DNA of 64,000 nucleotides from Escherichia phage UGJNEcP3. Under the pieces are notes generated by a model. That model searched no databases. It was given only the letters and a program-made list of their open reading frames with translations, and had not been told where the DNA came from. The stretch is from the sequence record OV876907, one strand, 5' to 3'. Positions 26,400 to 49,116 of the stretch are shown here, piece by piece; positions within the stretch are counted from its first letter, which is position 1; each line of letters opens with the position of its first letter. The position numbers and the translations under genes were made by a program.

Positions 26400-26660
26400 T
26401 TAATCAAATCGAATGGTCGACTTTTTAAAGAATAGCCCAGAACAAACTGTTCCTTCAACCCTTTTACCTGTCGGACCTACAGCAATAAAGCCTGTACGTT
26501 GGAAATCATCTTCAGAGCAGCCAAATAGGTTGTATCCCGTGATTTGGATTTGTTCATAGCCATTTGCATCCAATACACGGGTAGCATTATCAGCATCAGT
26601 ACATCCAACCAGTGAAACTGCTAATACGAGAGCTGCAATAGAACGATTAATATATTTCAT
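26400..26660 (-). CDS. small lipoprotein (86 aa)
   Basis: signal peptide with lipobox LVGC (MKYINRSIAALVLAVSLVGC). Confidence 0.6.
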   Translation of the reverse strand: MKYINRSIAALVLAVSLVGCTDADNATRVLDANGYEQIQITGYNLFGCSEDDFQRTGFIAVGPTGKRVEGTVCSGLFFKKSTIRFD

Positions 26661-26850
26661 AATTTCTCACTTAGTCAGTAGGTCGTAAAACCCGCCATTA
26701 ACATGTTTAGGAGCCGAGACTAACCGAACAGCCAGCCGTTGGCAATCAGGACAAACATCATTATCTCTTTCAGATATTTTCTTGATTTTTTTCGTATTCT
26801 TTTGCACAGTCTTCTGATTGGCATTTATAATCATAAAGTGGCATCTTCTA

Positions 26851-27222
26851 TTATTCCTTAAAGTGGGCTTTCAACATCTGGTAAACTGTCCAGGCTTCAG
26901 AATTATTAGAGATAGTGATTTTAGTCAAAGGGAATTCGCTTGGCTCAGATGGAGCCGCGTCTTCGCATTCATCTTCGGTATCGTCATCTTTTTCTTCTTC
27001 AAAGAAACGACGCTCATCTTTCTTTATGAATAGGCTCGTAAATTCACCAGTTGATAATTCCATTTTATACACATCACCATCTTCAATTCTGACTGGTCTA
27101 AATCCCTCGCCATTGATTATAGTATCGGCTATATTATCATTATCTGTACATAACAAACGGAATTTGCTTTCGGCATCATTATCTTTAAAATAATACCACT
27201 TATCGGTTTCAAATTTGGTCAT
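26851..27222 (-). CDS. hypothetical acidic protein (123 aa)
   Basis: start at MTKFETD ATG with AGGAG SD inside the upstream ORF end; acidic D/E-rich C-terminal half. Confidence 0.6.
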   Translation of the reverse strand: MTKFETDKWYYFKDNDAESKFRLLCTDNDNIADTIINGEGFRPVRIEDGDVYKMELSTGEFTSLFIKKDERRFFEEEKDDDTEDECEDAAPSEPSEFPLTKITISNNSEAWTVYQMLKAHFKE

Positions 27223-27433
27223 TATAATTCTCCTTCCAGAATTCAGTGCCTTCAGCAGTGATTTCACGGAACACTGCATAGATAGGGGTTTTATCACCCT
27301 GATTTTCGTATACATAAACCGACGATAAATGAGAAAACGTATCAGAATATTCCTTTTGAACCACGATTAAATCAGGGTTGAACAGAACATCTTCAAATTC
27401 TTCACGAGTCGAGTTCACAGTAACTTTAGCCAT
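27209..27433 (-). CDS. hypothetical protein (74 aa)
   Basis: early promoter at 27458-27496 then GAGAGGAAA SD. Confidence 0.55.
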   Translation of the reverse strand: MAKVTVNSTREEFEDVLFNPDLIVVQKEYSDTFSHLSSVYVYENQGDKTPIYAVFREITAEGTEFWKENYNDQI

Positions 27434-27457
27434 TTTATTTTCCTCTCATTTGTTGAT

Positions 27458-27496
27458 AGGGTAATAGTATCACACTACTACCCTGTTGTATACCAC
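27458..27496 (-). promoter_or_regulatory. early promoter (GGTATAC -35 variant)
   Basis: GTATAC, 18 bp, gTGaTACTAT, TACCCTATCAACAAA box. Confidence 0.5.
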
Positions 27497-27506
27497 TTTT
27501 TAAACT

Positions 27507-28058
27507 TTATGCAAAATGAATATCAGCATACTCAACAATAAAACTTTCAGGAACTACTTTAAAGGTGCCAAGGAACACGATGTTATACAGCTTAACACCT
27601 TCTTCAACCCATTGGTCTGTGATATAACCGGACATGCTGGTAGTTTCGTAAGTGGGGCCATACTTGCAATTGTATTCAAACGGTTTAGGTGAAACGAAAA
27701 AGACACCTTTACCTAATTTCCATTTAAAATCAACACCAACATGAGATCGGTCAATAGTTTCAACGTCTTGAGCTACTACGCCACGGATATCATTGCTTTC
27801 ACATACATACCCATCATGGGATTCAACTTCTTCAACTACAGGAGCGATGTATCCGGTAAATTCAGTAGATTCCAAGAATTTAGCACGCACATATCCGAAT
27901 TGAGTTTCGGTCTGGCCATTTTTAGGAATAATACGCACTTTAACTTCTTTAATTCCACCTACTAAATTGGTACGAATACCTGCAACTTCAACTAAACTGC
28001 CCGCAGCTTTTGAACGAGACTTTTTGGATACACGAACAATTTCACCGATAGTAATCAT
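27507..28058 (-). CDS. hypothetical protein, paralog A of a tandem pair
   Basis: 183 aa; C-terminal block ITDQWVEEGVKLYNIVFLGTFKVVPESF shared with next ORF. Confidence 0.65.
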   Translation of the reverse strand: MITIGEIVRVSKKSRSKAAGSLVEVAGIRTNLVGGIKEVKVRIIPKNGQTETQFGYVRAKFLESTEFTGYIAPVVEEVESHDGYVCESNDIRGVVAQDVETIDRSHVGVDFKWKLGKGVFFVSPKPFEYNCKYGPTYETTSMSGYITDQWVEEGVKLYNIVFLGTFKVVPESFIVEYADIHFA

Positions 28059-28100
28059 AATTTTTCTCTCTTGGTTAAAGGATTATAATCCATAAGAGCC

Positions 28101-28129
28101 ATTATAACATGGCTCTCGATAAAGTAAAC
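28101..28129 (-). promoter_or_regulatory. early promoter
   Basis: GTTTAC(28124-28129), 17 bp, caTGtTATAAT. Confidence 0.5.
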
Positions 28130-28131
28130 TA

Positions 28132-28680
28132 TTAATTCAATACATTAACCACTGCACTACGAGGTACTACGCTAAAATCACCAGCATGTACAACGTTCAG
28201 GAGTTCAACACCATCTTCAATCCACTGGTCTGTTACCCAACCACAGATAGGATTATCAAAAGGACGACGGATAGCCACAGCAGCACACAACAGGTCGGTA
28301 GGGCCTTGTTCTTCAACTTCTTGGAACAGGATGAACTCATCTTCATAAACCAGGTTTTTCTCTATTTTGTTATTATCTAACCGGCGGCCGTGGATGACGT
28401 AAGATTTGTCAAACCACTCACTTTTGGCGAATTCTTCAACAATAAATTCGCCTTCGCCAAAAACATCAGTCAGAGTTTTATAACCAGAAATCAAGGCCTT
28501 AATTTTAATTTCAGGTTCAACCAGTTTGTAGGTTTTGCCGATTTCGATAGTCTGAGTAGTCATAGTGGTTTCCTTAATTTCCAGTGGTTTAACAGGGCAT
28601 ACATAAGTGCTTAAAACATCAAAATCAATCAGTTTAGCTGCCGGATTCGGGGTGTATTTAGGGTTGTAATTAAATTTCAT
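28132..28680 (-). CDS. hypothetical protein, paralog B of a tandem pair
   Basis: 182 aa; C-terminal block VTDQWIEDGVELLNVVHAGDFSVVPRSAV. Confidence 0.65.
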   Translation of the reverse strand: MKFNYNPKYTPNPAAKLIDFDVLSTYVCPVKPLEIKETTMTTQTIEIGKTYKLVEPEIKIKALISGYKTLTDVFGEGEFIVEEFAKSEWFDKSYVIHGRRLDNNKIEKNLVYEDEFILFQEVEEQGPTDLLCAAVAIRRPFDNPICGWVTDQWIEDGVELLNVVHAGDFSVVPRSAVVNVLN

Positions 28681-29186
28681 ATTGTTCTCAATTCAATAAA
28701 ATCTACGAGTTCGGCATAAGATTTGCGGAACATTACTTGGCGGCCACCGATGACAACCTCATCTTCTGGTATTTCGTAAACAGCAAGATAGAATCCTTTA
28801 GAAGATAATTCTTTACGCTCTTCACGAGTGAACCAGCGCATCATATCATACTCACTGGCAAAAGCAAAATGGTAGAGGTTAACAAACCAGCCTGGAATAT
28901 AATCGTCGCAGCCTTCATAATCAGGTCGTTTCCACTTAGTTCTAATGGTTTTATTAGAATTTTCTACCAGCAACTTATCTTGACTTGGTAGTGGGATATT
29001 TTTATTAATGCTATGATGATGTCTAAAAATAGGTCTGTCTAAACCTACTTCTAATAACCAGCCTTCACTCCATGAGTCTGTTGTACTTCTATACGGGGTC
29101 ATTTGAGTACAGAGGTCTCGTCGTATTGTGATAGTGTTTCCATCATCTAAGATACTGAACGATGACTCAACTCGATAAATTTTCAT
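28677..29186 (-). CDS. hypothetical protein (169 aa)
   Basis: early promoter at 29208-29245 then GAGGAGAA SD. Confidence 0.6.
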   Translation of the reverse strand: MKIYRVESSFSILDDGNTITIRRDLCTQMTPYRSTTDSWSEGWLLEVGLDRPIFRHHHSINKNIPLPSQDKLLVENSNKTIRTKWKRPDYEGCDDYIPGWFVNLYHFAFASEYDMMRWFTREERKELSSKGFYLAVYEIPEDEVVIGGRQVMFRKSYAELVDFIELRTI

Positions 29187-29207
29187 TTTGTTCTCCTCAT
29201 GTTGATA

Positions 29208-29245
29208 GGGTAGATAATATCATGTCATGAGGAGAAGTAAACACT
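29208..29245 (-). promoter_or_regulatory. early promoter
   Basis: GTTTAC(29237-29242), 17 bp, caTGaTATTAT, CTACCCTATCAAC box. Confidence 0.55.
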
Positions 29246-29246
29246 T

Positions 29247-29921
29247 TTATCGATTTTTTACACTTAATGGGTCTGGATTCTCAGGAACATCTTCTAGGCT
29301 CAAGGCATACCGTTGAGCGTATTTCAGCATCAAGATATCCTTGGCGCAGTCATGGATGGAGTCATGGGCTACAAAGCCATTCAATGTTCCGTTAGGCAGA
29401 GGGCACATGCTTAATCCACGCGTCAGTGAATAGGCTTCAATGGCCGTACGGATATCGCGTTGGTTCCAGAATTTAACCGGTTCCAACTTAGTGGTATCGA
29501 CTTCGTTCTCAGGAACACCTTCAGAACGATAAGCATCACGAATAAGGTCCACTAAGATCGGAAAGTCAAAGGACATTCCGCGGCACCACATCTGGGATTT
29601 CCATTGGTCCACTTCGTTTTTACGACAGTATTCCAGGAAATTACCAATGCCGATAGAAGTACTCACATCAATTTCGGACGGAGCCAGGTTTTTACGTGCT
29701 TCAGGTCCTTGTTCTTTCCACCACTGCAATGTGCTTTTAGAGAACAGACGTTTATCGCGTTGAGAAGCCAAATCGAATTTAATACGAAGGCCGCGTTGAG
29801 TAAGCTCTTCAAACGATTCTACTACCTCTGGATTGGGGTCATAAGCAATTACGGCGAGGTCTATAACTGCTGCATTTTGGGTAGTGGCAAAGGTTTCGAA
29901 GTCAATAATTATATCTTTCAT
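29247..29921 (-). CDS. dexA: exonuclease A (DnaQ/DEDDh-like 3'-5' exonuclease)
   Basis: 224 aa; N-terminal IIDFETFA (Exo I motif) and C-terminal HDSIHDCAKD; position before dda as T4 dexA. Confidence 0.8.
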   Translation of the reverse strand: MKDIIIDFETFATTQNAAVIDLAVIAYDPNPEVVESFEELTQRGLRIKFDLASQRDKRLFSKSTLQWWKEQGPEARKNLAPSEIDVSTSIGIGNFLEYCRKNEVDQWKSQMWCRGMSFDFPILVDLIRDAYRSEGVPENEVDTTKLEPVKFWNQRDIRTAIEAYSLTRGLSMCPLPNGTLNGFVAHDSIHDCAKDILMLKYAQRYALSLEDVPENPDPLSVKNR

Positions 29922-30157
29922 TTAACGTACCTCATAAGGTCTCGGATTTGGCCAACGGTATAGTCTTCAATATAAACCGAAGAGATATTGTCGTCCATCA
30001 GTTTTTGCACTGCAATAAAATCACTTTCAATCTCTTTAAGTGAATGCAAGACCTTATGAGCCTTGCCACGGATATTTGTATCGTCTGGGTTGACCTTAAT
30101 AATATATTCCGTCTCGAATTTCAACTTATAAAATTGGTCTTTAGTTACTTTAATCAT
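29918..30157 (-). CDS. hypothetical protein (79 aa)
   Basis: start at MIKVTKD ATG just after dda stop. Confidence 0.5.
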   Translation of the reverse strand: MIKVTKDQFYKLKFETEYIIKVNPDDTNIRGKAHKVLHSLKEIESDFIAVQKLMDDNISSVYIEDYTVGQIRDLMRYVK

Positions 30158-30164
30158 ATTTTCC

Positions 30165-31496
30165 TCAAACATAATAGGCATCAGTACGAGCACGGGTAAT
30201 ACTAACATAAGCCAGCTGTGAAGCTAAATTGGCATCTGCCATGTGCATGCACGGAGTATAGATGAAACTGTTTTGGACAGTAAGACCCTGTGATTTATGA
30301 ACAGTGCTCACCGGAAGAGCTCGAACCTTAGTGAACATTCGCTTAGCTTTCCAGAAATCAGCCCACTTAGGTTTCTTACCAGTTCCACGCATAGCCTTGT
30401 ACTCAGTAGCCACCTTAGCCAAGAAATAATGGAACTTCTCAACTGAAGCCTCATCAATAACTTTCAAGTGTTCTACATAGTACTCGTCATCCTCATCAAC
30501 AGATTCAACCTGGAGGTCCCAGTAATTAATCATCTGGCGAGTGCCTACATCCTTGGCAGACAAAAACAATGAGGTGTGGTTCACATCTAAAATACGAACC
30601 ATCTGGCCGTTATTAAAAATGGTTTCAGAGAATTTCTTACCGTCGTATTCAAGTTCCTTAATAAAAGGCTCTTGCATCACGAGGATTTCACCCTTAATAT
30701 AAGGCGCATCGGTTTCATAAAGCTTTTTACGAATAATACTATTCAGCTTTTCAACTGATTTATTTGTATAAGCAAACATCCTATTCTCAAACAAGGCATC
30801 TGCGTCTTTTACGATGGAAAAATAATTCATCATAAAATCTTTTAAAGCAGTCTGAGATTTAAAACCATGGACACCGTGTCCTTCGAATACACAATCTCTA
30901 AACCATCCACCATTACGGATTTCAGTAGCCACCTCAATGATAGGAGCATTACTACGCATCACTTCAGTCAAATGCAATTGCTTTATTTTTGGATGCGTAA
31001 AGAATGGAGACAACTGAGGACTACCATCACTTCCAGGTTCCACAGGCTGTAGCTGAGCTCGGTCACCAATCCCTAATACAGTACACCATGGTGGCACGGA
31101 AGACTCAATAATCTTAAACAACTTACCGTCAATCATTGAGCCTTCATCAACAACTAACACATTACACTTGCTCAAGTCAGGAGCTTCTCGTTGTTCAAAG
31201 ATATCCTGGTCTTCGTATGTAGTAGGGTTAATCTTTAAGATTCGATGAATTGTCGATGCTTCTTGGCCTGCGAGTTTAGACAATACCTTTTTGGCTGCAT
31301 GTGTAGGTGCAGTCAAAATAACTCCGAGTTCACCATTCTTGACCAAGTGGTCAAGGATAAATTTAGTAAGGGTTGTTTTACCTGTACCGGCAGGACCGTT
31401 CAATGTAATCCATTCGCCCTTACGTCGTTTAATAGCTTCAATGATTTCTTTAAAGGCCGTCCTCTGGCCGATGTTCAAGTCTTCAAATGTAATCAT
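30165..31496 (-). CDS. dda: Dda SF1 DNA helicase
   Basis: 443 aa; Walker A GPAGTGKTTL, ILTAPTHAAKK, ASTIHRILKINP match T4 Dda (memory). Confidence 0.9.
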   Translation of the reverse strand: MITFEDLNIGQRTAFKEIIEAIKRRKGEWITLNGPAGTGKTTLTKFILDHLVKNGELGVILTAPTHAAKKVLSKLAGQEASTIHRILKINPTTYEDQDIFEQREAPDLSKCNVLVVDEGSMIDGKLFKIIESSVPPWCTVLGIGDRAQLQPVEPGSDGSPQLSPFFTHPKIKQLHLTEVMRSNAPIIEVATEIRNGGWFRDCVFEGHGVHGFKSQTALKDFMMNYFSIVKDADALFENRMFAYTNKSVEKLNSIIRKKLYETDAPYIKGEILVMQEPFIKELEYDGKKFSETIFNNGQMVRILDVNHTSLFLSAKDVGTRQMINYWDLQVESVDEDDEYYVEHLKVIDEASVEKFHYFLAKVATEYKAMRGTGKKPKWADFWKAKRMFTKVRALPVSTVHKSQGLTVQNSFIYTPCMHMADANLASQLAYVSITRARTDAYYV

Positions 31497-31792
31497 GCCA
31501 ATTTTACTCGCTTAACATATAAAGTGTCTAAAACTAATTTAAGTTCTCGGGCTCGTTCTTCGGTAGGATATACTGTTTTAGTTTCCCACTTATCAAACCA
31601 CCATTTTCTTGGCGTGCACACTGTTTCAAGGCGTCCAAGCTGAAGATATCTTTTTGTTGAGATTTCATAAGCCTCTAAAGCAGTGTCGGCTCCAATCTTT
31701 GTCGAATACAAAGTCACTTCACCGGCATCTTCTAATGGAATTTCGTACCCGTCTTTGTCCTTGTGAACTAATACGTATGCATAGTACATCAC
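31493..31792 (-). CDS. hypothetical protein (dda.1 position)
   Basis: 99 aa overlapping dda start. Confidence 0.6.
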   Translation of the reverse strand: MMYYAYVLVHKDKDGYEIPLEDAGEVTLYSTKIGADTALEAYEISTKRYLQLGRLETVCTPRKWWFDKWETKTVYPTEERARELKLVLDTLYVKRVKLA

Positions 31793-31793
31793 G

Positions 31794-32528
31794 TTAACCT
31801 CTAATCAGTGAAAAAATTGAAGCATTCAGCGGAAGACCTTTTTTCAACTTCAATTTGTCAATAAAAGAAAGGTGTTCTAAACGCTCCAGACCTTGAATAA
31901 TTTTATCATACATATCGTAACGCGTTTCTGCTTCAGACAATTTAAACTTGACACGCCAGTCAGGTCCACCAATTAAAGATTTAAGACCTTTTTCCATAGT
32001 ACCAATTGAAGCATTAGAACCATGAATACGAGCCTTAACCGCGATGACAGAAGGGGTCTTATCAGTAGCTCCTGATTTAATAAGGTCCTTAAGTCGTTTT
32101 TCACGCTTTTTAAGGCCTCTTTGGGTGTCTTTAATATTTTTAACGATTTTACGAATTTTATAATAGTTATCGGGGGTGACTTTAAAACTATTAGGCATTT
32201 TAGAACTACCTGAAATACGGACCGCTAAACGGGTTTGTGCACGTTTCAATTCGTCTAGAGACAAATCGGCCCGTAAGCTGTTATACTTGATTTTAACTGG
32301 GATTACATTACCCTCAATATAGCCGATATCATTATTAAAACGTTCAAATGAAATCTTATCACTAACTGAATTCTCATCAAAGCTCTCGCCTGAATAAGCA
32401 CACACTTTTTGTTCGAGAAGTCTACGAACATACTTACTAGACAGATTGAAGTCCTTACCACGTTTATAAGCAGAAGCTTTGGTGTGTTTGCGGCGGTTGT
32501 AAACCTTTAACTCAAATTCAGGGGTCAT
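31794..32528 (-). CDS. hypothetical basic protein at the srd position
   Basis: 244 aa K/R-rich; syntenic with T4 srd; not sequence-verified. Confidence 0.5.
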   Translation of the reverse strand: MTPEFELKVYNRRKHTKASAYKRGKDFNLSSKYVRRLLEQKVCAYSGESFDENSVSDKISFERFNNDIGYIEGNVIPVKIKYNSLRADLSLDELKRAQTRLAVRISGSSKMPNSFKVTPDNYYKIRKIVKNIKDTQRGLKKREKRLKDLIKSGATDKTPSVIAVKARIHGSNASIGTMEKGLKSLIGGPDWRVKFKLSEAETRYDMYDKIIQGLERLEHLSFIDKLKLKKGLPLNASIFSLIRG

Positions 32529-32563
32529 GGTATTTTTCTCATCTTACGGACGATTAGTTGATA

Positions 32564-32601
32564 GGTTCTATAGTATCATGTTGCTTGGTAAAGTAAACAC
32601 T
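32564..32601 (-). promoter_or_regulatory. early promoter
   Basis: GTTTAC(32593-32598), 17 bp, caTGaTACTAT, AGAACCTATCAACTAA box. Confidence 0.55.
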
Positions 32602-32667
32602 TTTTTGCTTTAAATTTTCGACGGTATAATGAATCAAGGACTTTGCCTTTCAATTAAACCGGGTGGT

Positions 32668-33282
32668 TCAGTAAGAAAGAACGGAAAGATTCCAAATGGT
32701 GTAATTATTCCATTTAGGATTTCTCTCAATAGAGTCTACGCGCAGCGTAGTTCCCGCAGGGAACATCATCTCATCTTCATCATTAATTAATTGTAAGTTT
32801 GCTACACGTGTAGATTCAGGAAATGCGCCTGGGAACTCTTCAGGGGGCGCAGCACATAACATTTTAAAGATTTCTTCCTGATAATTGTACACAAATGGTG
32901 CATCATTAATACAAAAGATATTAAATGTGCCGTAGAAGTTATAAGATGCGAAATTCCTTGCCACGTTGAAGTCTTTAGAGAAGCTCATCACGCGGTCGAA
33001 TTCAATTACCGCACCTACACACATTGTGGACTCTAGATACCTCATAGTCTTTTTAGATATGCCGCGATAGAGCTTATCAGGCACTACAGAAGTCAGGTTC
33101 TTACGAATAATTTTGTTCAGAGTTTCCTGGATAGAATCAGGTTTATTTTCCATACACTGCCAGAGCGTGCTCTGTTCTAAATCAGAATACACCTCATCAA
33201 TTTCTATCTGAGTATTCTCACGGAAATCATCGCATTTGACATTGTTGATAAATTCTGCTAATTTATAGCTTGGATATAACAT
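32668..33282 (-). CDS. Mod-type mono-ADP-ribosyltransferase (ModA/ModB family)
   Basis: 204 aa; R-S-E-type motifs: YRG, SFS, E-x-E-like EDEMMFPAG; tandem with a paralog. Confidence 0.75.
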   Translation of the reverse strand: MLYPSYKLAEFINNVKCDDFRENTQIEIDEVYSDLEQSTLWQCMENKPDSIQETLNKIIRKNLTSVVPDKLYRGISKKTMRYLESTMCVGAVIEFDRVMSFSKDFNVARNFASYNFYGTFNIFCINDAPFVYNYQEEIFKMLCAAPPEEFPGAFPESTRVANLQLINDEDEMMFPAGTTLRVDSIERNPKWNNYTIWNLSVLSY

Positions 33283-33299
33283 ATTATTCTCCTCAGTTG

Positions 33300-33340
33300 A
33301 TAGAAAGATAGTACCACAAGCCTCCTTGCCTGTAAACTAA
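33300..33340 (-). promoter_or_regulatory. early promoter
   Basis: GTTTAC(33332-33337), 18 bp, gTGgTACTAT, CTTTCTATCAACTGAGGAG. Confidence 0.5.
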
Positions 33341-33906
33341 AAATCCAACATTTTTAAATGAATTATTTTGTACTCGATTTCGTATGGATCCCTTTTGACG
33401 GTTTCGATTGCAACAATCTCAAATCGCGATAGACTAGAGACCATGAACTCGCATTCAGTTTCAACCATATCATAGAGGTCGATACGAGATTCATCTATTT
33501 CAAGCTCATCCACATTCCCTGCAAGAACAAGGTCGATAGCATGATTGTAGTAGTCGAAAATGAACGGTGCATTCCTGAGACTTAAAATGGTTTTGGTTCC
33601 ATACTCCCATGCCCCTGCGAACTGACGAGCCTGAGAGTATTGTGTACTAAAAGAAGTAACTCGACCAGGAGACCATTGACACCCTACTGAAAGGAGCTCT
33701 AATTGCTCAAGTTCTCTGGGGGTAATCCCGCGATACAACTCTACTGGAACCGCTGAAGTAACATGCTTGCGAACCAGTTTGTCGAGGTCGTAATGGAAGT
33801 TAGGGTCCTTTTTAGCGTCCAGACATTTTTCTAAAAGATTCTGTTCGTGTTTTGAGAATTTGGAATTGATTCGGTCTTGATAAAGACATTTTTGTTCGAT
33901 GTTCAT
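33337..33906 (-). CDS. Mod-type mono-ADP-ribosyltransferase (ModA/ModB family), paralog
   Basis: 189 aa; YRG, TSFS, ECEFMV motifs. Confidence 0.75.
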   Translation of the reverse strand: MNIEQKCLYQDRINSKFSKHEQNLLEKCLDAKKDPNFHYDLDKLVRKHVTSAVPVELYRGITPRELEQLELLSVGCQWSPGRVTSFSTQYSQARQFAGAWEYGTKTILSLRNAPFIFDYYNHAIDLVLAGNVDELEIDESRIDLYDMVETECEFMVSSLSRFEIVAIETVKRDPYEIEYKIIHLKMLDF

Positions 33907-33930
33907 ATGACCTCCAGTGATTTAGAGGTC

Positions 33931-33959
33931 ATTATAACATGAAGGGAGGAGGTGTAAAC
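33931..33959 (-). promoter_or_regulatory. early promoter
   Basis: GTTTAC(33954-33959), 17 bp, caTGtTATAAT, GACCTCTAAATCA. Confidence 0.55.
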
Positions 33960-40007: not shown

Positions 40008-40008
40008 T

Positions 40009-40302
40009 TTATTCACCTGTAACTTCTTTAACGATATTTTTGTTATCGAAATTAGCATCGCAGTACAGAACATAGTTATACTGCATAACACCACCTGAAG
40101 CTAATTGGTCTGACACTTCTTTAGCCATATCAGGGCGGTCACGTTTAGTGATGTTCATGATATCAGCATAAATCTGATGTTCGACTGATTCTTGGTCTGC
40201 AGTCATAGACCATTCACAAAGGTCTTTATCCAATCCGGCTGTAACTGGAGCTGTACCACATGATGCTACTGTAAGGATTGCTGCGATTAATAACTTTTTC
40301 AT
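40009..40302 (-). CDS. sp: Spackle-like secreted protein with lipobox-like signal peptide
   Basis: 97 aa from ATG 40300-40302 (GAGGAG SD); MKKLLIAAILTVASCG signal; size and position as T4 sp. Confidence 0.65.
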   Translation of the reverse strand: MKKLLIAAILTVASCGTAPVTAGLDKDLCEWSMTADQESVEHQIYADIMNITKRDRPDMAKEVSDQLASGGVMQYNYVLYCDANFDNKNIVKEVTGE

Positions 40303-40323
40303 TTGAATCTCCTCGTTAGTTGA

Positions 40324-41337: not shown

Positions 41338-41342
41338 GTTGA

Positions 41343-41381: not shown

Positions 41382-41387
41382 TAAAAC

Positions 41388-41408
41388 AAAAAAAGGAGCC
41401 GAAGCTCC
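41388..41408 (-). terminator. intrinsic terminator after gene 41
   Basis: minus-sense GGAGC-UUCG-GCUCC hairpin followed by TTTTTTT. Confidence 0.65.
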
Positions 41409-42848
41409 TTAAAATTTGATAGATGCTGCTAAATCGTCCAAATCACTTCTATTAACACGCGTCTGTCGATTGACCTCGGCTTGTCGATTCATCTCACCTG
41501 TAGCCTCACGAACGGTGTTCACTGGACCCGGGTTGGAATCGTCTTCAACTTCATACCAACGTTGATTTCCTTTCTTAACACCAATCTTAAATTTGTTGTA
41601 GTAGCTCTTATCGCCATAACGAGATTTAAGCTGCTTAACCATCTGCATACCCATCTGGGCAAACTCTTCTGTCTCGACCACACCTAACATGAAGTCTGCA
41701 GTATGTGCAATACCAAAGGATTCAGCAATATCGGCCATATCGATTTCGGCTGCAACGTTCGCACCACGAGTAGTCTGGGCTGCAGTCCACAACAATAATT
41801 TCTTCTCTACTGCAAGTCCACGTAGTTCTTCGGCAACCATCTTAATCAATCCGTAACTGTTTTCAGAGAAAACTTTCGTACGAGACGATGCACAGATGGC
41901 CAAGTAGTCGACGATAACGACCTGTGGGACAAAGTTTTGTTTGAGCTTATATTCGTTTAATAATGCACGGAATGTATCGGCATTCGCACCACCAGTAGGA
42001 TACTGTTTAATCTTTAAACGACCTAAGGTAGCAGTTGAACGCCATTTATCCATCTTAGCTTTATATTCAGGCCATGAGACGTGACCATCATCGATATCGT
42101 CCAGTGACACGTCCAGAAGGTTGGCATCGATACGCTTAGCACATACTTCCTCTGCCATCTCCATGGAGATATAAAGAACATCGTATCCGGATTGAAGGTA
42201 ATCAGCAGCCAATGAACAAAGACCAAGAGACTTACCTACGTTTGTTCCTGCCAACAATACGTTTTCAGTACCAAACTCGGCACCACCCTTGGTAATCTTA
42301 TTCAGAATATTAAGACGGAATGGAACCTTACGTGCTTTATCGGAATAACTTTTGAATCGTTCTTCATAGTCATCCATCCAGTCATGACCTAATTCAGAAT
42401 CGAAACAAATCGATAATGCATCACGCATGATATCCGGAATAGCACCAATACCTGGAAGTTTTCTATTTTGTTGCTCAACCGGAAGGTCGGCATTAGTTTG
42501 GATTTCAATGATTTTTGAAGTTGCATTATACATCGCTGCTTTCTGAACGTATTTCTCCGTCTCTTTAACCAACCATTCTTGGTCTTCAGGTCCGGCATTC
42601 AGCGAACTTAAAAGCTCTTTAGCGCCTTGGTGTTCAACTTCTGAAAGCGTACTGTTATCTAACGCAATACTCAATGCATTCTTAGAAGGCACTGCATTAT
42701 ATTCATTGACATGTTTTTTAATTTCTTTGAAAAGGGTCTTTGCAGGACCCTGGTCAAAATATGAATCATTCATATAAGGCCAAACCTTAGTGAAATAATC
42801 ACTATTGCCTAGCAGTTGAGCCAAAATAGTTTCTACCACTTCCACCAC
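41409..42848 (-). CDS. 41: replicative DnaB-like helicase gp41
   Basis: 479 aa; Walker A GTNVGKS, RecA-like core; T4 gp41 size and position. Confidence 0.9.
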   Translation of the reverse strand: MVEVVETILAQLLGNSDYFTKVWPYMNDSYFDQGPAKTLFKEIKKHVNEYNAVPSKNALSIALDNSTLSEVEHQGAKELLSSLNAGPEDQEWLVKETEKYVQKAAMYNATSKIIEIQTNADLPVEQQNRKLPGIGAIPDIMRDALSICFDSELGHDWMDDYEERFKSYSDKARKVPFRLNILNKITKGGAEFGTENVLLAGTNVGKSLGLCSLAADYLQSGYDVLYISMEMAEEVCAKRIDANLLDVSLDDIDDGHVSWPEYKAKMDKWRSTATLGRLKIKQYPTGGANADTFRALLNEYKLKQNFVPQVVIVDYLAICASSRTKVFSENSYGLIKMVAEELRGLAVEKKLLLWTAAQTTRGANVAAEIDMADIAESFGIAHTADFMLGVVETEEFAQMGMQMVKQLKSRYGDKSYYNKFKIGVKKGNQRWYEVEDDSNPGPVNTVREATGEMNRQAEVNRQTRVNRSDLDDLAASIKF

Positions 42849-43162
42849 CTCTTAGATTTAATTTTATCCAGTTCTTCTTGTATTTGCATTGTAACACATT
42901 TTTCTACATGAAGCGCTAGCTCTTCTTTTCGGTCTTCGGAAGGTGTTCCGAAATCAACCGACACTTTTCCATCTTTCTCAATAACAATATTCATCACATA
43001 AACGATGTGAGCAGTGCCATCGGGTAAAGTAAGCATAATTTCCTGCTTAACAGAACCCATTGACTTACGGATTATATCTAATGATTTCTCATAATAACGA
43101 GGGTCACTAGGACCCTCTTCGGTATCTTTAACAAAATTATCTAAATCAGATAAATCAGTCAT
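42833..43162 (-). CDS. 40: gp40-position protein (head vertex assembly chaperone in T4)
   Basis: 109 aa between 41 and uvsX as T4 gene 40; not sequence-verified. Confidence 0.55.
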   Translation of the reverse strand: MTDLSDLDNFVKDTEEGPSDPRYYEKSLDIIRKSMGSVKQEIMLTLPDGTAHIVYVMNIVIEKDGKVSVDFGTPSEDRKEELALHVEKCVTMQIQEELDKIKSKRWWKW

Positions 43163-44327
43163 CTAAATCCATCTCTTCTAAATCGTTTTCGATATCAGCA
43201 GCGCTTTGGGTATTTCCACCTAATTTAACAGCAACGTTCTTAGAGACGCGAGAGTTAATAAGGTCGTTAACCGCATCGTCAACTTCTTTAATAGAATTAA
43301 TTGCACCGAGCTTATACTTATTCTCGATTGCTTCACGGAACGGAGCATGTTTAAACAGCGGTCCCCAGAACTCAACGCAATCGGTAGCTTTAGCACGCCA
43401 TGCTTTTTCTTCTTGAACCATTTCACCTGTGGTTTCGTCAAGGAATGCACGATTATACCAGCCAGCTTTAGGTTTCACGACAAAGCCGATATCAGTAGCC
43501 ATTTCAAGCAATCCACTGAATGGGTCGATACCACCTTCGAAGTTAACGGTGATAGGGAACGTTGATTTCTCTTTAACCGTACGAGATTTCTCGGCCTTCA
43601 GTGTGAAGTCATAACCTGTGAGCTCGGTACCATCTTTAACCTGACGTTTAGAGATAAAGAATACGGTAGAAGCAGAGTACAGAATACCAGTACCACCACC
43701 CATAATCTCTTTAGGATACATTCCACCAATTTCCATAGCCGTGTGGTTAATTGCTACACAAGGAATATCCTTGATGGTCAGATAAGGCGTTACGATACGG
43801 AACAGAGATTTCAGTGACTTAGCACGAGTCATATCACCTACAACTTTCTCGTTCAAAGCATCTTCGGTTTCTTTCTTAGAAGCAGTGTTACCAATAGAGT
43901 CGATAAAGATAATAACCTTTTCGCCACGAGTAATTTCTTCTAACTGGTTGGTCATATCAACTTTAAGCTGTTCGACTGACTGGATTGGGGTATGAACCAC
44001 ACGTTCCAAATCAACACCCATCGAACGGAAATAAGATTCTGAAGCACCAAACTCAGAGTCATAGAACAAACAAATTGCGTCTGGATATTTCTTCATATAT
44101 GCCGCAACCATGGTAAGTCCAAACAACGTTTTAAAGTGCTTAGATGGAGCAGCAAAGATTGTCAAACCTGATTGTAAGCCTGCATTCAACGCACCACCCA
44201 ATGCAATATTCAGCATAGGGATACGAGTAGGAACTTCGTCACGACCATTAAACAATTTAGATTTGGTCAGGTCGGCAGTCATTTTAGAAGTAGAAGCTTT
44301 AATCAAACGGGATTTTAAATCAGACAT
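43155..44327 (-). CDS. uvsX: UvsX recombinase (RecA/Rad51 family)
   Basis: 390 aa; near-collinear with T4 UvsX as recalled (MSDLKSRLIKASTSK..., YDSEFG, EKSRTVKEKS, WGPLFKH). Confidence 0.92.
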   Translation of the reverse strand: MSDLKSRLIKASTSKMTADLTKSKLFNGRDEVPTRIPMLNIALGGALNAGLQSGLTIFAAPSKHFKTLFGLTMVAAYMKKYPDAICLFYDSEFGASESYFRSMGVDLERVVHTPIQSVEQLKVDMTNQLEEITRGEKVIIFIDSIGNTASKKETEDALNEKVVGDMTRAKSLKSLFRIVTPYLTIKDIPCVAINHTAMEIGGMYPKEIMGGGTGILYSASTVFFISKRQVKDGTELTGYDFTLKAEKSRTVKEKSTFPITVNFEGGIDPFSGLLEMATDIGFVVKPKAGWYNRAFLDETTGEMVQEEKAWRAKATDCVEFWGPLFKHAPFREAIENKYKLGAINSIKEVDDAVNDLINSRVSKNVAVKLGGNTQSAADIENDLEEMDLDD

Positions 44328-44365
44328 TATATTTTTCCATAGGCATCATTATATTTTACTCACGT

Positions 44366-44400
44366 TTTAAGATAGGGTAATTATATCACTTCACATTTAC
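44366..44400 (-). promoter_or_regulatory. promoter-like element upstream of uvsX
   Basis: minus-sense gTGaTATAAT then TACCCTATCTTAAAAC box; no canonical GTTTAC -35. Confidence 0.4.
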
Positions 44401-44404
44401 AGCG

Positions 44405-45298
44405 TTAAAGGACCACGTCCTCATAACTTGGCATTTCGTGCTCAGAATGGATATGGGCACCGAAATAAATGAATTCAGCTAGACCAGGATGGAATACTAA
44501 ACCAGGATTCTCGTGATAAATGATATGAGGTCTTGATTTCAGAATCTGATAATATTCAACCTTACTAGGTTTGAATTTAATAATCTCTACATCAGGACGA
44601 TAGTCTTCACGTTTAAATGAATCATTCGGGTCGGTGATATAAAGGCGAGAACCTTCAGCTGCAGCTTGGTCTACAACTCTTTCGAATTGATAACATTTAT
44701 CAGAGATACGGAATGGATGGAAAATACCATCAATTTTAATAGGCGCTAGACCTTCAGAGTAACGCTCAATTACTGCGGGATTAATTACCTTTTGGTCTAC
44801 AAAAATCTTATCAGAGGACGCACCTCGTGACACCAGGACGTCTTTCTGGCATTGATTCAGGACTGTAGTATAAATCGAACGTTCAACTGAGGACACGTCG
44901 GTATCAATAAACTCGTCGATATAATAACGAGGAACTTCAGGGTCCATTGTAATGTTAAAGTTGAATTGTACAGTCTGAGTGCCATCATAACCTGTGATAT
45001 CGGTTACTAATCCTGAGCAGTCATAGTATTCGATTAACGAATCAACAACGAACTCGTTTTCAGACCAAAAATGTTTACGAGTTTCATAAGCATTTTCTTT
45101 ATACCAAAGCGGTACAAAATTCAGTTCAGGAAATAATTCAATGCATTCTTTGATATCGCTCGAATTTCTAGGATAAGCCAGATAATCACCTGGGCAAGCA
45201 CGGTTTAAATGGAGTTGAAAATTACCGTCCTTAAGGACGGCATATTCACCTGTTTCGTAACTACGCATACTGAAAATAGGAACGATAAACAGACTCAT
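44405..45298 (-). CDS. hypothetical 297-aa protein in the beta-glucosyltransferase locus (candidate DNA sugar transferase)
   Basis: occupies T4 beta-gt position between uvsX and 42-like gene; sequence does not resemble T4 beta-gt; no motif recognised. Confidence 0.6.
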   Translation of the reverse strand: MSLFIVPIFSMRSYETGEYAVLKDGNFQLHLNRACPGDYLAYPRNSSDIKECIELFPELNFVPLWYKENAYETRKHFWSENEFVVDSLIEYYDCSGLVTDITGYDGTQTVQFNFNITMDPEVPRYYIDEFIDTDVSSVERSIYTTVLNQCQKDVLVSRGASSDKIFVDQKVINPAVIERYSEGLAPIKIDGIFHPFRISDKCYQFERVVDQAAAEGSRLYITDPNDSFKREDYRPDVEIIKFKPSKVEYYQILKSRPHIIYHENPGLVFHPGLAEFIYFGAHIHSEHEMPSYEDVVL

Positions 45299-45993
45299 TT
45301 CAGGAATCCTCGAACATAGTCAAAATCACGTTCAAATACATGTGCACTAACCATAGTATGGGAATACGTACCCAGACCAACACCACACTGTTCAGCAATA
45401 AAGGCCATCAGTTTACCCTGCAGATAGAAATCCAGCTGCATAACGATAGCACAGTTCTGTGAACGCATATGAGTGTGTGCATACAGACGTCCATCACGAA
45501 TATAATATGTCACCGAATCGGTACAAGGATATTCTAAGGATTCGTCAGAATCAAGGAGGGCTTGGTCTTGTTCTTGGAGAATCTGGAACACAACTCTTCT
45601 TGAGTTAGGCTTCTCTTTAAGCTCTTTAAGTAAGGCTGGGAGTTGGGCCACAATTCGAGGTCCATAGAAAGTGTTGAAGTTTGCAGGCAATACGTCACTT
45701 TTCGGCTTATCAATGAACTTAGCAACATTAGGGTATTCCTTAAATGCTTCGGCGGCGTCAGTACCACCGGAAATCATAAACTTCCAGAAAGATTCGGCAT
45801 AATCATAGTTGATACGATTAATACGAGGGTCGGTGAATTTATAGGTGCTTGCATCCAGAACTTCAACTGAAGCCGAACCAATTTCATAACAACGACCGAT
45901 ACGAGAATCAACTGCAAACTGTGGAGCTTCCAGGATTTCTTCGTTCATTTGTTTAAATGCATTTTCAAAACTAACAGCGGTAATGTGTTTCAT
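45295..45993 (-). CDS. 42: thymidylate-synthase-family pyrimidine hydroxymethylase (gene 42-like)
   Basis: 232 aa; SRR arginine motif, catalytic-Cys block YPCTDSVTYYIRD, MRSQN...LD with Asp at the gp42 cytosine-specificity position, C-terminal SAHVF. Confidence 0.65.
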   Translation of the reverse strand: MKHITAVSFENAFKQMNEEILEAPQFAVDSRIGRCYEIGSASVEVLDASTYKFTDPRINRINYDYAESFWKFMISGGTDAAEAFKEYPNVAKFIDKPKSDVLPANFNTFYGPRIVAQLPALLKELKEKPNSRRVVFQILQEQDQALLDSDESLEYPCTDSVTYYIRDGRLYAHTHMRSQNCAIVMQLDFYLQGKLMAFIAEQCGVGLGTYSHTMVSAHVFERDFDYVRGFLK

Positions 45994-46526
45994 TTATTCA
46001 CCTCATAATTAATGTATTCATTAAGACGTTTTAATTCTACCATATCGACGTTAAGCAAGTTATTATGGCCGTCGTGATTTAAGATTTTAAACACGTTTTC
46101 AAAACATGTTTCATATTGGCGGATAGTTAGGTTGAACTCATCTTTAGTCAGTTTAATGAGGTCATCTTCAAAGTCTTTATCCAACGGATTACGGGTTAAA
46201 ATAACCTCAATGATATTGAATTCTTTTTTGAAATCAATCCAATCTGCTAGTTCTACATAAGGGTCCATTTCACCACGAAGGAATCCCGAGTAAACAATAT
46301 TACTAGGATAACCACGGTCTAGGATGTAAACGAAATTAGGGTCTAAAAACTTATACAACGTCTCGACTAAAGCCTTGTCATTATCAGTTCCTAACGAAAT
46401 ACATTTACCATTAATCTTTTTAGGAAAATCAATAAGACGATATTTCTTATCAGATAAAAGGGTTTCGATTAAAGTAGACTTCCCGGAATTATCCGGGCCG
46501 TCTATAACAATGATTTTTGGATTCAT
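45990..46526 (-). CDS. P-loop nucleotide/nucleoside kinase
   Basis: 178 aa; Walker A IVIDGPDNSGKSTL at N-terminus (dNK/TMK-like); unlike T4 gp1. Confidence 0.65.
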   Translation of the reverse strand: MNPKIIVIDGPDNSGKSTLIETLLSDKKYRLIDFPKKINGKCISLGTDNDKALVETLYKFLDPNFVYILDRGYPSNIVYSGFLRGEMDPYVELADWIDFKKEFNIIEVILTRNPLDKDFEDDLIKLTKDEFNLTIRQYETCFENVFKILNHDGHNNLLNVDMVELKRLNEYINYEVNK

Positions 46527-46897
46527 GGATGATAGGCCTTATAACTATCAAGAGTTCCTTCGCGAACCATTTCTTTAAAGTGGTCAGGACGAATTGCTCG
46601 GTCATCGATGATAAAAGTATAACTCGGCTTGTGTGTAAGCAAATTGTGATATTTCAATCCAATTTTTTCAAGGTTCTTAACCAATGCAGGAACTACTTCA
46701 ACCAAGATTCGGCCTGGGCCGCATGAAGTCATACCACGGGCAGTGAACAATGTAATCTCATGACCTTCATCGTACAGCTTATTAATCATGGACACCATTT
46801 CGGTGTCCGGTTTAAAGTTTTCATAATCACGGTCATCTTGCCAGTGAGTAATGGTATTATCGATGTCAAAGCACAAATGCATTAAATTTTCTTCCAT
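46523..46897 (-). CDS. HAD-superfamily phosphatase
   Basis: 124 aa; motif I FDIDNTIT (DxDxT), motif II TARG. Confidence 0.65.
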   Translation of the reverse strand: MEENLMHLCFDIDNTITHWQDDRDYENFKPDTEMVSMINKLYDEGHEITLFTARGMTSCGPGRILVEVVPALVKNLEKIGLKYHNLLTHKPSYTFIIDDRAIRPDHFKEMVREGTLDSYKAYHP

Positions 46898-48555
46898 TGT
46901 TTGTGGAGTTCAGTAGAACCTGTAGGTTTATATTTTACACCAGTTTCCTGGTCAAGCAAAACCCACTTATCAGGGCATCGAGTGATAATTTGGGCCGTAA
47001 TAGGGTCACGAACTTCATCGACAAATTCACCTGTAATAAGCTTACGCTTACGAGGATGCCGCTTCAGCAGCACACTCAGTTGATATAGACCGTTGTAATA
47101 AGCGCCCAGAGCTTTCAGAGGGTTATTTTTAAAGTAACCTGCCAACGCCATCCAGATAACAGCAATCCAGAGCTTGTGCTTAAATGTACACATTGGAATA
47201 TCATCTAAAGGCATAACCTTTTCAATATCAACGAATACTCGAGTTCCATTACGAGTTAAGCCACCCCATAGAGGGTCAGAGTTAAATTTGTCATAACCAT
47301 CGATAGAATAAAGCACCTTAGCTTCATCATAAATCGCAGGGCCTTTAGAACTATTACCAAAATAACCGCGTGGGTCGATGATTTTAATATCACCTTCGTC
47401 CGACAGCATAATATTACTGTAGTGCGGGTCGCCGTGAATAAGTTGGTACGGTTCTTTATGTTCAGACAGAATTTCTAGTGCATGACGAAGAAGTTTTTCT
47501 GGGTCGCCTACCTTAAAGTCATTGACATGGGTAATGCCCTGTGGAGCAAAGCCTTCAATCAATCCAGCAATAGAAGCATTACGAATAAGGACCTTGTCCA
47601 ATACTTCTTTCTTAACATCGGAATACCATTGCTCATCGGATGGATTATCGATAGTTCCACCAAATGAACGTAATGCACTAATGACCTTATAAACCATGAG
47701 GACTTTAGTTTCTTTAGACATAAACCGATAGGCATCTGCCATGGTGCGACCAAAGATACGTTCCATTTTAATGAATTCACCTGGAGCAAAGTCTACAATG
47801 CTCGGAACAAATTCAGAATCAATAGAATTATACCAATTGATTTCTTTAGATTGGATTTCTTTACCTAATTCGTTGGTAGGTACTTTAATAGCCAGATTCT
47901 CAGTGAACTCTAATTTATTAAATTCACGGTTAATTTCAGAATCTTCATGGGCCTTAGCCAGTTTCAATTTGTCACCGACATCAACTACAAAGTCCAGCTT
48001 ACGTTCGGTCAAATGGACCATCGAATCTAGGTTATCAGCAAGGTCTTCGCCATAATTAGAACGGTTGAAGCCTGTCCAATTAGCCACCTGATACAAACCA
48101 ACCACACCACCGCCAGTACCAATTTCACGCAAGTACGGTTCTTCAAATGTAAAACGACAGTCAGTCCCGTAGGTATAGCAATAGTCGTTATCCCACTCAA
48201 CTTTATGACCCTCAGGAATGATGTCACACCAGTTAAACAAGACGTTATGGCCAATGATATCTTCAGCAATGCAATCGATAGCATGAGCTGAACCATTAGC
48301 CACATCTACGTTACGAATAGTGAATTTAGGCTTATCACTATTAATCATGTTAATGGATTTAATATAGCCTTTAACGAGGTCGTTAAATTTGCTGTGAATA
48401 ACCAGAATAATTTCATCTGATTGGTTACTATACAAATCATACAAATGTTTTAATACAGTATGTTGTTTGTAGTTAACCAATACCTTCGGGATTTCGTTAG
48501 TAATTGGATACAACCGTGAGCCAAGACCCGCGCCTAAAATAACAACCTTTTTCAT
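46882..48555 (-). CDS. bifunctional sugar-1-phosphate nucleotidyltransferase / APH-fold kinase
   Basis: 557 aa from ATG 48553-48555 (GAGGAA SD); N-terminal ILGAGLGSRLYPIT..PKVLV (RmlA/GlmU-type); C-terminal LIHGDPHYSNIML + IIDPRGYFG (APH/ChoK-type). Confidence 0.75.
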   Translation of the reverse strand: MKKVVILGAGLGSRLYPITNEIPKVLVNYKQHTVLKHLYDLYSNQSDEIILVIHSKFNDLVKGYIKSINMINSDKPKFTIRNVDVANGSAHAIDCIAEDIIGHNVLFNWCDIIPEGHKVEWDNDYCYTYGTDCRFTFEEPYLREIGTGGGVVGLYQVANWTGFNRSNYGEDLADNLDSMVHLTERKLDFVVDVGDKLKLAKAHEDSEINREFNKLEFTENLAIKVPTNELGKEIQSKEINWYNSIDSEFVPSIVDFAPGEFIKMERIFGRTMADAYRFMSKETKVLMVYKVISALRSFGGTIDNPSDEQWYSDVKKEVLDKVLIRNASIAGLIEGFAPQGITHVNDFKVGDPEKLLRHALEILSEHKEPYQLIHGDPHYSNIMLSDEGDIKIIDPRGYFGNSSKGPAIYDEAKVLYSIDGYDKFNSDPLWGGLTRNGTRVFVDIEKVMPLDDIPMCTFKHKLWIAVIWMALAGYFKNNPLKALGAYYNGLYQLSVLLKRHPRKRKLITGEFVDEVRDPITAQIITRCPDKWVLLDQETGVKYKPTGSTELHKQWKKI

Positions 48556-48615
48556 TATCTGTTCCTCAAGTGAATGTAGGTACATTATACACTATTTTTA
48601 ATAAATTGGTATTGC

Positions 48616-49116
48616 TTAAATCTTATCTTTACCGATTTCAATACACTGTTCTATTGCCGCCGGTACTTTGGTCTTGAGCTTATCGATTTGTTTCTTATAA
48701 TCACGAGCTTTACCGAAGCTCTCGGTTTCGAGCATTTCGTAATAACGAGCCTCGTGGATGGAAATCTGTAGATTGATATGGTTTACGCACATCGCATACA
48801 GTTTCTGCTTTTTGTACAAATCATCTTGGCGCTTCATTTCTGCCTGGTGTTTGGCTAGTACCGCTTCACGCTTAGACTCTTGTTCACGTTGGAATTCGAT
48901 TTCCCTTTGAGCATATTTTGCACAGTTATTACCACATTGATTATTAGCTCGGGTATACACAAGTCCAGAACCGGCACGGAATTTCATTTCGCCATCGAAT
49001 TGTTTCTGTTCAGCTGCGATACGAGCTTTACCAACTTCATCGGCTGAAACTGCATCACCATATTGGACCGCACAACCTGATAGGAGCATACTCATTGCGA
49101 TAATTAACTTTTTCAT
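48616..49116 (-). CDS. lipoprotein with coiled-coil-like body (166 aa)
   Basis: MKKLIIAMSMLLSGCAV signal + lipobox; charged helical remainder; GAGGA SD. Confidence 0.6.
   Translation of the reverse strand: MKKLIIAMSMLLSGCAVQYGDAVSADEVGKARIAAEQKQFDGEMKFRAGSGLVYTRANNQCGNNCAKYAQREIEFQREQESKREAVLAKHQAEMKRQDDLYKKQKLYAMCVNHINLQISIHEARYYEMLETESFGKARDYKKQIDKLKTKVPAAIEQCIEIGKDKI

Follow-up and report, generated by a model that had tools for sequence, protein, structure and literature searches.

Two predicted lipoproteins of a JS10-like T-even phage: a gp39.1-family protein and an Imm.1-family protein encoded beside imm

The 64,000-nucleotide stretch of Escherichia phage UGJNEcP3 that we analyzed (sequence record OV876907; hereafter the window, meaning the whole stretch) contains two genuine early genes of a JS10-like T-even phage that are predicted to encode lipoprotein precursors. 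One, open reading frame (ORF) A, belongs to the gp39.1 family. The other, ORF B, belongs to the Imm.1 family and lies in the same gene group as the superinfection immunity gene imm. These are two known but uncharacterized T-even families and not a new kind of system, so the novelty is low to moderate. Judged from gene neighborhood alone, a role in superinfection exclusion is plausible for ORF B. For ORF A such a role is unsupported, as gp39.1 lacks any link to exclusion genes. The two features are as follows.

26400..26660, minus strand: ORF A, gp39.1-family predicted outer-membrane lipoprotein precursor, 86 amino acids (aa)
48616..49116, minus strand: ORF B, Imm.1-family (PHROG 1754) predicted outer-membrane lipoprotein precursor, 166 aa

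The sequence of the window matches that of Escherichia phage UGJNEcP4 (OV877765.1) with 100% identity, and the phage is a Dhakavirus, i.e., a JS10/JS98-like T-even phage. ORF A, ORF B, imm, a micro-ORF called 42.1 and the gene for Spackle (Sp) are all on the minus strand in the early region, between topoisomerase gene 39 and DNA polymerase gene 43.

Conserved lipoboxes in both ORFs

An earlier note on this DNA had proposed that these two ORFs start with signal peptides ending in the lipoboxes LVGC and LSGC. We found its coordinates to be right, both ORFs to pass a lipobox rule and the Cys to be conserved in homologues. The rule, in the style of PROSITE PS51257, asks for a Lys or Arg in residues 1-7, an uncharged stretch and a lipobox of the form [..][..][..][AGS]C, with the Cys at positions 15-35. 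Across the whole window, 5 of 1450 combinations of start and ORF (at least 40 aa) pass it: ORF A, ORF B, Sp and two plus-strand ORFs of 40-42 aa with GTG starts, which we take to be noise.

The N-terminus of ORF A reads MKYINRSIAALVLAVSLVG-C20-TDADNA, with a predicted signal peptide at residues 1-19; the features that the rule recognizes are K2, R6 and the lipobox LVG-C20 (Cys codon at 26603-26601). That of ORF B reads MKKLIIAMSMLLSG-C15-AVQYGD, the corresponding features being K2, K3 and LSG-C15 (Cys codon at 49074-49072). Both ORFs have an ATG start and a Shine-Dalgarno sequence. For both proteins the sequence supports a conserved signal peptide of the signal peptidase II (SPase II) type.

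The strongest evidence for these predicted lipoboxes is their conservation across homologues. For gp39.1, 68 of 72 homologues pass the rule and the remaining 4 keep the Cys, while C20 is invariant across a 27-sequence alignment with identity down to 48%. All 11 ORF B homologues that were evaluated pass, and the pair G14-C15 is invariant in 24 sequences with identity down to 22%; the lipobox is also present in the homologues of phages PM2, PEi20, LC53, VR7, CGG4-1 and KLB8. UniRef already labels gp39.1, as well as the PM2 homologue of ORF B, 'Lipoprotein'. Searches of Pfam, NCBIfam, PADLOC and PDB sequences gave no significant match for either ORF. Searches for related loci with narrowed family alignments gave 15 viral loci and 2 loci from the bacterial collection.

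The gp39.1 family

ORF A matches PHROG 902 (E=6.1e-35), and its JS10 orthologue is annotated as gp39.1. It is located immediately upstream of topoisomerase gene 39, and this synteny is shared with T4 and RB32. The mature part of about 66 aa contains an invariant C48 and C73, which would fit a periplasmic disulfide. Other invariant residues in the mature domain are D52, T56, F58, K79, T82 and R84, at roughly 50% identity. The structural model consists of a helix and a four-stranded sheet and resembles PepSY/cystatin-like domains, although this match is weak. A fold search of BFVD with the model retrieved unannotated phage homologues only.

The family is phage-only and very large. It is present in 1066 phage records, and a profile search of 1.84 billion representative proteins yielded 2299 clusters at 50% identity with E<=1e-3, or 1082 clusters with the stricter E<=1e-10. 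Nearly all of the best 150 matches are single-domain proteins of 78-125 aa. By comparison, 185,579 bacterial species genomes contain 2 matches only, both on phage-like contigs of metagenome-assembled genomes (MAGs). The mature domain is found in phages that infect enterobacteria, Rhizobium, Stenotrophomonas or Agrobacterium; phage-like contigs from the bins of Chitinophagaceae and Bacilli genomes carry it too.

Among the best 149 representatives, a script that assigned classes found a Cys directly after the hydrophobic stretch in 111, and about a dozen others that the script had put in different classes also have a lipobox when inspected by eye. In about 10 of the 149, an uncleaved hydrophobic anchor replaces the Cys, and the conserved trait of gp39.1 is therefore membrane tethering on the periplasmic side. 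Of the 111 representatives, 87 have Thr or Ser directly after the Cys, and none has Asp there. One of the phage-like MAG contigs with a gp39.1 homologue, JAQUDY010000039.1 (locus L043, 3200-7446), also carries, about 3 kb further on, three small ORFs of lipobox type (LVGC, FMGC and STGC), which look like a cluster of phage lipoprotein genes.

The T4 reference genome carries a damaged copy of the gene (NC_000866, 5398-5659). Its lipobox has changed from LVGC to LINS, and because of a 1-nucleotide (nt) insertion the signal peptide is cut off from the annotated 65-aa product. Another T4 clone (T4_7t1) has its frame broken right after the start (ATG AAA TAT TAA). The gene is intact in RB32 and in most other Tequatroviruses. 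The broken reference copy may explain why the gp39.1 family has been neglected.

The transcription signals around ORF A include one terminator-like site.

26386..26401, minus strand: terminator-like hairpin, AAGGGC-TTCG-GCCCTT then TTAT, directly 3' of ORF A

This hairpin ends the early cef-goF-39.2-39.1 unit. We found no MotA-box middle promoter motif or late promoter motif (TATAAATA) serving ORF A or ORF B. Expression of ORF A appears to be early. Just after the gp39.1 terminator and upstream of gene 39 there is a MotA-box-like middle promoter (TTATGCTTTA-N12-TAATAT; position 26385, minus strand). In the neighboring zinc-ribbon gene 39.2, a run of seven A's (around 26786-26792) replaces the six of JS10 and T4, which shifts the frame and splits the ORF. 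The source record has no annotation at that place, and the frameshift is either a homopolymer sequencing error or a pseudogene.

The Imm.1 family

ORF B matches PHROG 1754 along its entire length with E=6.9e-52, and its mature part alone does so with E=5.4e-43. T4 Imm.1 matches the same PHROG over its full length (E=6.1e-43). An hhalign comparison of the ORF B family with T4 Imm.1, N-terminus included, gave a probability of 96.6%. In Gelderlandvirus and Jiaodavirus, the lipoproteins in the slot of T4 imm.1 (X in the order 43-X-imm-42) show homology with the ORF B family over the whole body (E=9e-7, hhalign probability 91%). All nine representatives compared have a Cys in the middle of the helix and a C-terminal x-N-x-C-[VIM] motif. 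We rejected the proposition that ORF B is a close homologue of T4 Imm.1, as the similarity of the mature bodies is not significant; it is a distant relative or a positional counterpart within PHROG 1754.

After the Cys, ORF B has the tether motif DEVGK, then a conserved N-terminal module that ends in Q-C61-G-N-N-C65, and then a long helical hairpin with C110 and C158. The Cys pairs C61/C65 and C110/C158 would fit an oxidizing compartment. In the AF2 model, helices at residues 64-130 (67 residues) and 134-162 have a predicted local distance difference test score (pLDDT) of 80-95. In database records ORF B goes by the name 'hypothetical protein', with the exceptions of one 'lipoprotein' and several cases of 'capsid and scaffold protein'. 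The last of these labels is spurious.

The imm transcription unit

ORF B follows imm and 42.1 downstream of a single promoter-like site.

49527..49555, minus strand: sigma-70 promoter-like site of the early type (TTTACA-17-TATTAT with an upstream TG), located after the gene 43 stop (49559) and before the imm start
49258..49494, minus strand: imm, superinfection immunity membrane protein, 78 aa (PF14373, E=2.6e-18; PHROG 1039)
49124..49261, minus strand: 42.1, hydrophobic micro-ORF, 45 aa (PHROG 3610)

The imm stop overlaps the 42.1 start (ATGA), and the 42.1 stop is 7 nt upstream of the ORF B ATG, with GAGGA in the gap. There is no terminator-like site from the early-type promoter to the end of ORF B. 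It is supported that ORF B is in one tightly packed transcription unit with imm. Moreover, ORF B appears to be co-transcribed with imm and 42.1 from one early promoter, and it is probably translationally coupled to them. The earlier note had correctly placed the larger lipoprotein ORF next to an imm-like gene; PF14373 and PHROG 1039 identify that gene as imm, in the same packed unit. Its label of 49124-49261 as an imm.1-like micro-ORF was wrong, however: this ORF belongs to the 42.1 family, and the member of the Imm.1 family is the lipoprotein ORF B itself.

The 42.1 micro-ORF (45-49 aa) is conserved from T4 to PEi20, with a C-terminal end of the form K-Y/F-x-C-[FI]-[NW]. Homologues occur in VR7 (annotated as gp42.1), PM2, PEi20, LC53, RB69 (ORF054c) and T4, where a 49-aa version lies unannotated between imm and gene 42. 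The T4 copy is at 26227-26376, and 42.1 is annotated neither in the T4 RefSeq record nor in the window's source record. A tblastn search with the 45-aa sequence reached Dhakaviruses only; visual inspection and local BLAST revealed the more distant copies.

Downstream of ORF B is a gene for a 567-aa fusion of a nucleoside triphosphate (NTP) transferase and a kinase (46882-48585), followed by genes annotated 'phosphoheptose isomerase', 'thymidylate kinase' and 'thymidylate synthase'. The fusion resembles RB69 genes that have been proposed to supply UDP-arabinose for arabinosyl-hydroxymethylcytosine DNA (PMC8056088, PMC6024577).

Gene order across genera

A lipoprotein of the Imm.1 family is adjacent to imm in six genera: Tequatro-, Mosig-, Dhaka-, Gapriver-, Gelderland- and Jiaodavirus. 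The gene orders that we observed in these and four other genera are as follows.

Tequatrovirus: 43-imm.1-imm-42.1-42
Dhakavirus, Gaprivervirus: 43-imm-42.1-lipoprotein
Gelderlandvirus, Jiaodavirus: 43-lipoprotein-imm-42
Mosigvirus (RB69, AV110): imm.1-imm-sp block near gene 61; 42.1 stays after gene 43
Kanagawavirus, Karamvirus, Mosugukvirus, Winklervirus: 43-lipoprotein-isomerase-42.1-NTP-transferase, no imm nearby

Given the adjacency in six genera, gene order ties the lipoprotein to the exclusion genes. The earlier note had suggested that the larger lipoprotein ORF forms a possible exclusion cluster with its imm-like neighbor and the micro-ORF, and this suggestion survives in part. It agrees with the position of ORF B beside imm in the six genera and beside both imm and sp in RB69 and AV110. 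On the other hand, Edwardsiella phage PEi20 has the lipoprotein but no detectable imm or sp, and ORF A is unlinked to exclusion genes.

A conserved Cys in Spackle

40009..40302, minus strand: Spackle (Sp, gp61.3) homologue, 97 aa (PF25676, E=1.3e-42; 144.7 bits against a cut-off of 27)

The N-terminal region of Sp reads ...TVAS-C15-GTAPVTA|G. It thus contains both a lipobox-like VAS-C15 (Cys codon at 40258-40260) and a site of the type cut by signal peptidase I (SPase I), P-V-T-A|G, at residues 19-23, 7 residues beyond the Cys. Throughout the Sp variants compared, including Jiaodavirus copies with 47% identity, Cys15 is invariant, in the contexts VASC, LASC, AVSC, LSSC and VSSC; P-x-x-A at residues 19-22 is also conserved. 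However, T4 Sp from a freeze-thaw periplasmic extract begins at residue 23, which places the cleavage behind residue 22 (PMC7650644). Processing therefore probably occurs mainly elsewhere than at the lipobox-like motif, with the caveat that the published sequencing concerned the soluble form. The earlier description of the VASC of Sp as lipobox-like is therefore not supported in the form given: Cys15 is real and conserved, but the T4 protein is soluble and periplasmic and starts beyond it.

Proposed function and alternatives

We propose that ORF A and ORF B would be exported by Sec, modified with diacylglycerol and cleaved at the invariant Cys. Because the Cys is followed by Thr in ORF A and Ala in ORF B, and not by Asp, the rules known for E. 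coli predict transfer to the outer membrane by Lol. The two proteins would then face the periplasm from the inner leaflet of the outer membrane. ORF B may be the outer-membrane or periplasmic arm of the change that T-even phages make to the envelope soon after infection, in order to exclude or survive secondary phages. Its residues 25-72, next to the anchor, would bind a conserved component of the host envelope, and the fast-evolving helical hairpin, clamped by disulfides, would project into the periplasm.

The gp39.1 protein would be a separate and far more widespread module: a disulfide-bonded domain of about 66 aa with a helix-plus-four-strand (PepSY/cystatin-like) fold, tethered on the periplasmic side in almost all of approximately 2300 phage lineages. 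We infer a broadly conserved target in the periplasm or outer membrane, which the protein would bind or inhibit; its design is like that of T5 Llp, but without a tie to a single receptor. For the full explanation, which combines lipid anchoring of both proteins, ORF B as an envelope-exclusion arm and gp39.1 as a binder or inhibitor of a conserved target, our confidence is evenly balanced.

A bolder version goes further, and we are doubtful that it is correct. According to this version, the Imm.1-family lipoprotein is a third, unrecognized component of T-even exclusion, beside Imm in the inner membrane and Sp in the periplasm; separately, gp39.1 is a pan-phage lipoprotein that disables a conserved machine or enzyme of the Gram-negative envelope; and a fraction of Spackle is itself lipid-anchored through Cys15. 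Such a third component would explain the imm.1-imm-sp block of RB69-like phages. To our knowledge, the mechanism by which T4 Imm blocks DNA entry has not been explained since the gene was identified around 1989, and there is a structural mechanism for Sp only. Should the lipoprotein that accompanies imm be involved, exclusion would be the work of a system spanning both membranes. A function for gp39.1, if found, would hold for phages of many Gram-negative hosts and could bear on interference between phages in therapeutic cocktails. If neither protein has an exclusion phenotype, they are two more accessory envelope proteins.

It is important to emphasize several observations that weigh against the proposed explanation. 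The lipidation and sorting of both proteins are sequence predictions. Without the signal peptide and tether motif (the first ~28 residues), the similarity between the ORF B family and T4 Imm.1 is lost, with an hhalign probability below 1%, whether T4 Imm.1 is used alone or in a profile of T4 and RB69-type sequences. The link between ORF B and T4 Imm.1 then rests on co-membership in the PHROG, shared architecture and position. Residues 25-72 of ORF B, the more conserved N-terminal module, are modeled at only ~55 pLDDT, and a fold search with ORF B returned generic helical bundles only, which is uninformative. Searches of the available literature for imm.1 and gp39.1 found no relevant work on either family. 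The T4 reference genome carries a degraded gp39.1, so that the gene is dispensable under laboratory conditions.

The phylogenetic distribution also raises problems. In the whole 177.6-kb genome of PEi20 we detected no Imm or Sp (tblastn gave nothing at E<=0.1, and the best hit of the Imm hidden Markov model had E=0.34). This phage, though without detectable imm or sp, keeps an ORF B homologue, 42.1 and gp39.1. The lipoprotein therefore has no obligate Imm partner. Conversely, the Imm homologues of phages outside the T-even group have no such lipoprotein neighbor.

Alternatively, ORF B and 42.1 might form an envelope module that is independent of Imm and does not serve exclusion. It might stabilize the envelope, time or inhibit lysis, or protect against colicins, type VI effectors or lysis from without. 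We regard this alternative as possible, if somewhat unlikely. In PEi20 and in the Kanagawa-, Karam-, Mosuguk- and Winklerviruses, the lipoprotein and 42.1 are found next to gene 43 with no imm, and the helix at residues 64-130 of ORF B, which we estimate from helix geometry to be ~100 A long, could span much of the periplasm as structural lipoproteins do. However, in RB69 the lipoprotein has left 42.1 and moved with imm beside sp, which ties it to the exclusion genes and not to 42.1. In addition, ORF B appears to be expressed early and not late, and in PHROGs it has no similarity to spanins or known lysis proteins.

For gp39.1, an alternative to a conserved target is that the protein acts in the manner of T5 Llp and the Cor proteins of T1 and phi80. 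These small, disulfide-bonded lipoproteins of the outer membrane face the periplasm and jam FhuA from that side (PMC9586334). By analogy, gp39.1 would attach to the phage's own receptor on its periplasmic face and inactivate it, so that re-adsorption and superinfection are blocked. The overall design is shared: Llp has a mature part of 61 aa, is a periplasm-facing outer-membrane lipoprotein and has one disulfide (PMC9586334), while gp39.1 has a mature part of ~66 aa with the invariant C48/C73 and apparently early expression. Nevertheless, the mature gp39.1 domain is highly conserved across phages whose hosts have no receptor in common, and Tequatroviruses with different porin receptors carry, by inference, almost the same gp39.1. 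Its conservation in phages whose hosts are unrelated speaks for a conserved target and not for one receptor, and we consider the receptor-blocking alternative improbable.

It is also conceivable that the lipoboxes are unused, the N-termini of ORF A and ORF B being either Sec signal peptides that SPase I removes or uncleaved anchors. The precedent is T4 Spackle, in which the lipobox-like Cys15 is conserved and yet the sequenced N-terminus, from the soluble fraction, is residue 23 (PMC7650644); moreover, a minority of gp39.1 relatives lack the Cys. Unlike Sp, however, neither ORF has an A-x-A-type site downstream of the Cys. The conserved mature sequence of ORF A begins exactly at the Cys (C-T-D-A-D-N-A); ORF B has, behind the Cys, a less conserved tether with DEVGK. 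In both families the Cys is invariant down to 22-48% identity while the preceding hydrophobic region varies freely. We therefore judge unused lipoboxes to be very improbable.

Scarcely credible, and dropped, is the reading that ORF B functionally belongs to the neighboring arabinosyl-hydroxymethylcytosine DNA-modification cluster and not with imm: ORF B homologues do lie directly upstream of arabinose-5-phosphate isomerase and NTP-transferase/kinase genes in PM2, PEi20, LC53 and Karamvirus-type loci, and ORF B itself abuts the 567-aa NTP-transferase/kinase gene, but the lipoprotein occurs with no arabinose genes beside it in VR7, T4, CGG4-1 and KLB8, the arabinose genes of RB69 follow gene 43 while its imm.1 is elsewhere beside imm, and we see no obvious part for a periplasmic lipoprotein in cytoplasmic nucleotide-sugar synthesis. 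We also rejected an o-spanin (Rz1-type) identity for either ORF, given their neighbors (39.2 and 39 for ORF A, 42.1 and the NTP-transferase gene for ORF B), the early promoter context with no late motif, the folded or helical mature parts, and the presence of the spanin genes pseT.2 and pseT.3 elsewhere in related genomes.

Comparison with known systems

Many PepSY/cystatin-like domains are extracytoplasmic inhibitor or immunity modules. The gp39.1 model resembles several of them, namely YpmB (2gu3), YpeB (5boi), cystatins and the colicin M immunity protein (2xgl), with weak scores and 8-15% identity, and ORF A has no Pfam PepSY match. The helix-plus-four-strand fold is common and is not diagnostic of function.

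The general design of Llp and Cor, which includes early expression and an intramolecular disulfide, matches gp39.1, and ORF B matches them in the anchor. Llp and Cor target the TonB-dependent transporter FhuA, and their genes are next to the gene of the receptor-binding protein; neither is true of ORF A or ORF B. Membership in the Llp/Cor group was rejected, as there is no match in sequence, PHROG or fold.

T4 Spackle is an early, exported exclusion protein that acts in the periplasm as an inhibitor of the gp5 tail lysozyme, and in RB69 its gene is directly beside imm.1-imm. Sp is a soluble helical bundle (PMC7650644). ORF A and ORF B show no sequence relationship to it and lack a site of the SPase I type.

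The T4 counterpart of ORF A, gp39.1 (PHROG 902), is ~79% identical to the window's copy and is encoded at the same place upstream of gene 39. The copy in the window is intact, unlike that of the T4 reference.

The T4 counterpart of ORF B is Imm.1 (UniProt P18057, 'uncharacterized 14.1 kDa protein in imm-Gp43 intergenic region'), a protein of 125 aa in the same PHROG 1754, whose gene neighbors imm in the interval between genes 43 and 42. ORF B exceeds it by 41 aa and has an additional conserved hairpin and the Q-C-G-N-N-C module, both of which the T4 and RB69 proteins lack. The order also differs, in that ORF B is downstream of imm and 42.1 while T4 imm.1 is upstream of imm. Like ORF B, T4 Imm.1 is a predicted lipoprotein precursor (MKIAILVIALGLAG-C), with the lipobox LAG-C. 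The two proteins share the tether motif G-x-V-V-x-x-S/D-D/E-V-G-K (in T4, G-x-V-V-x-x-S-D-V-G-K), the Cys in the middle of the helix and the C-terminal N-x-C-[VI].

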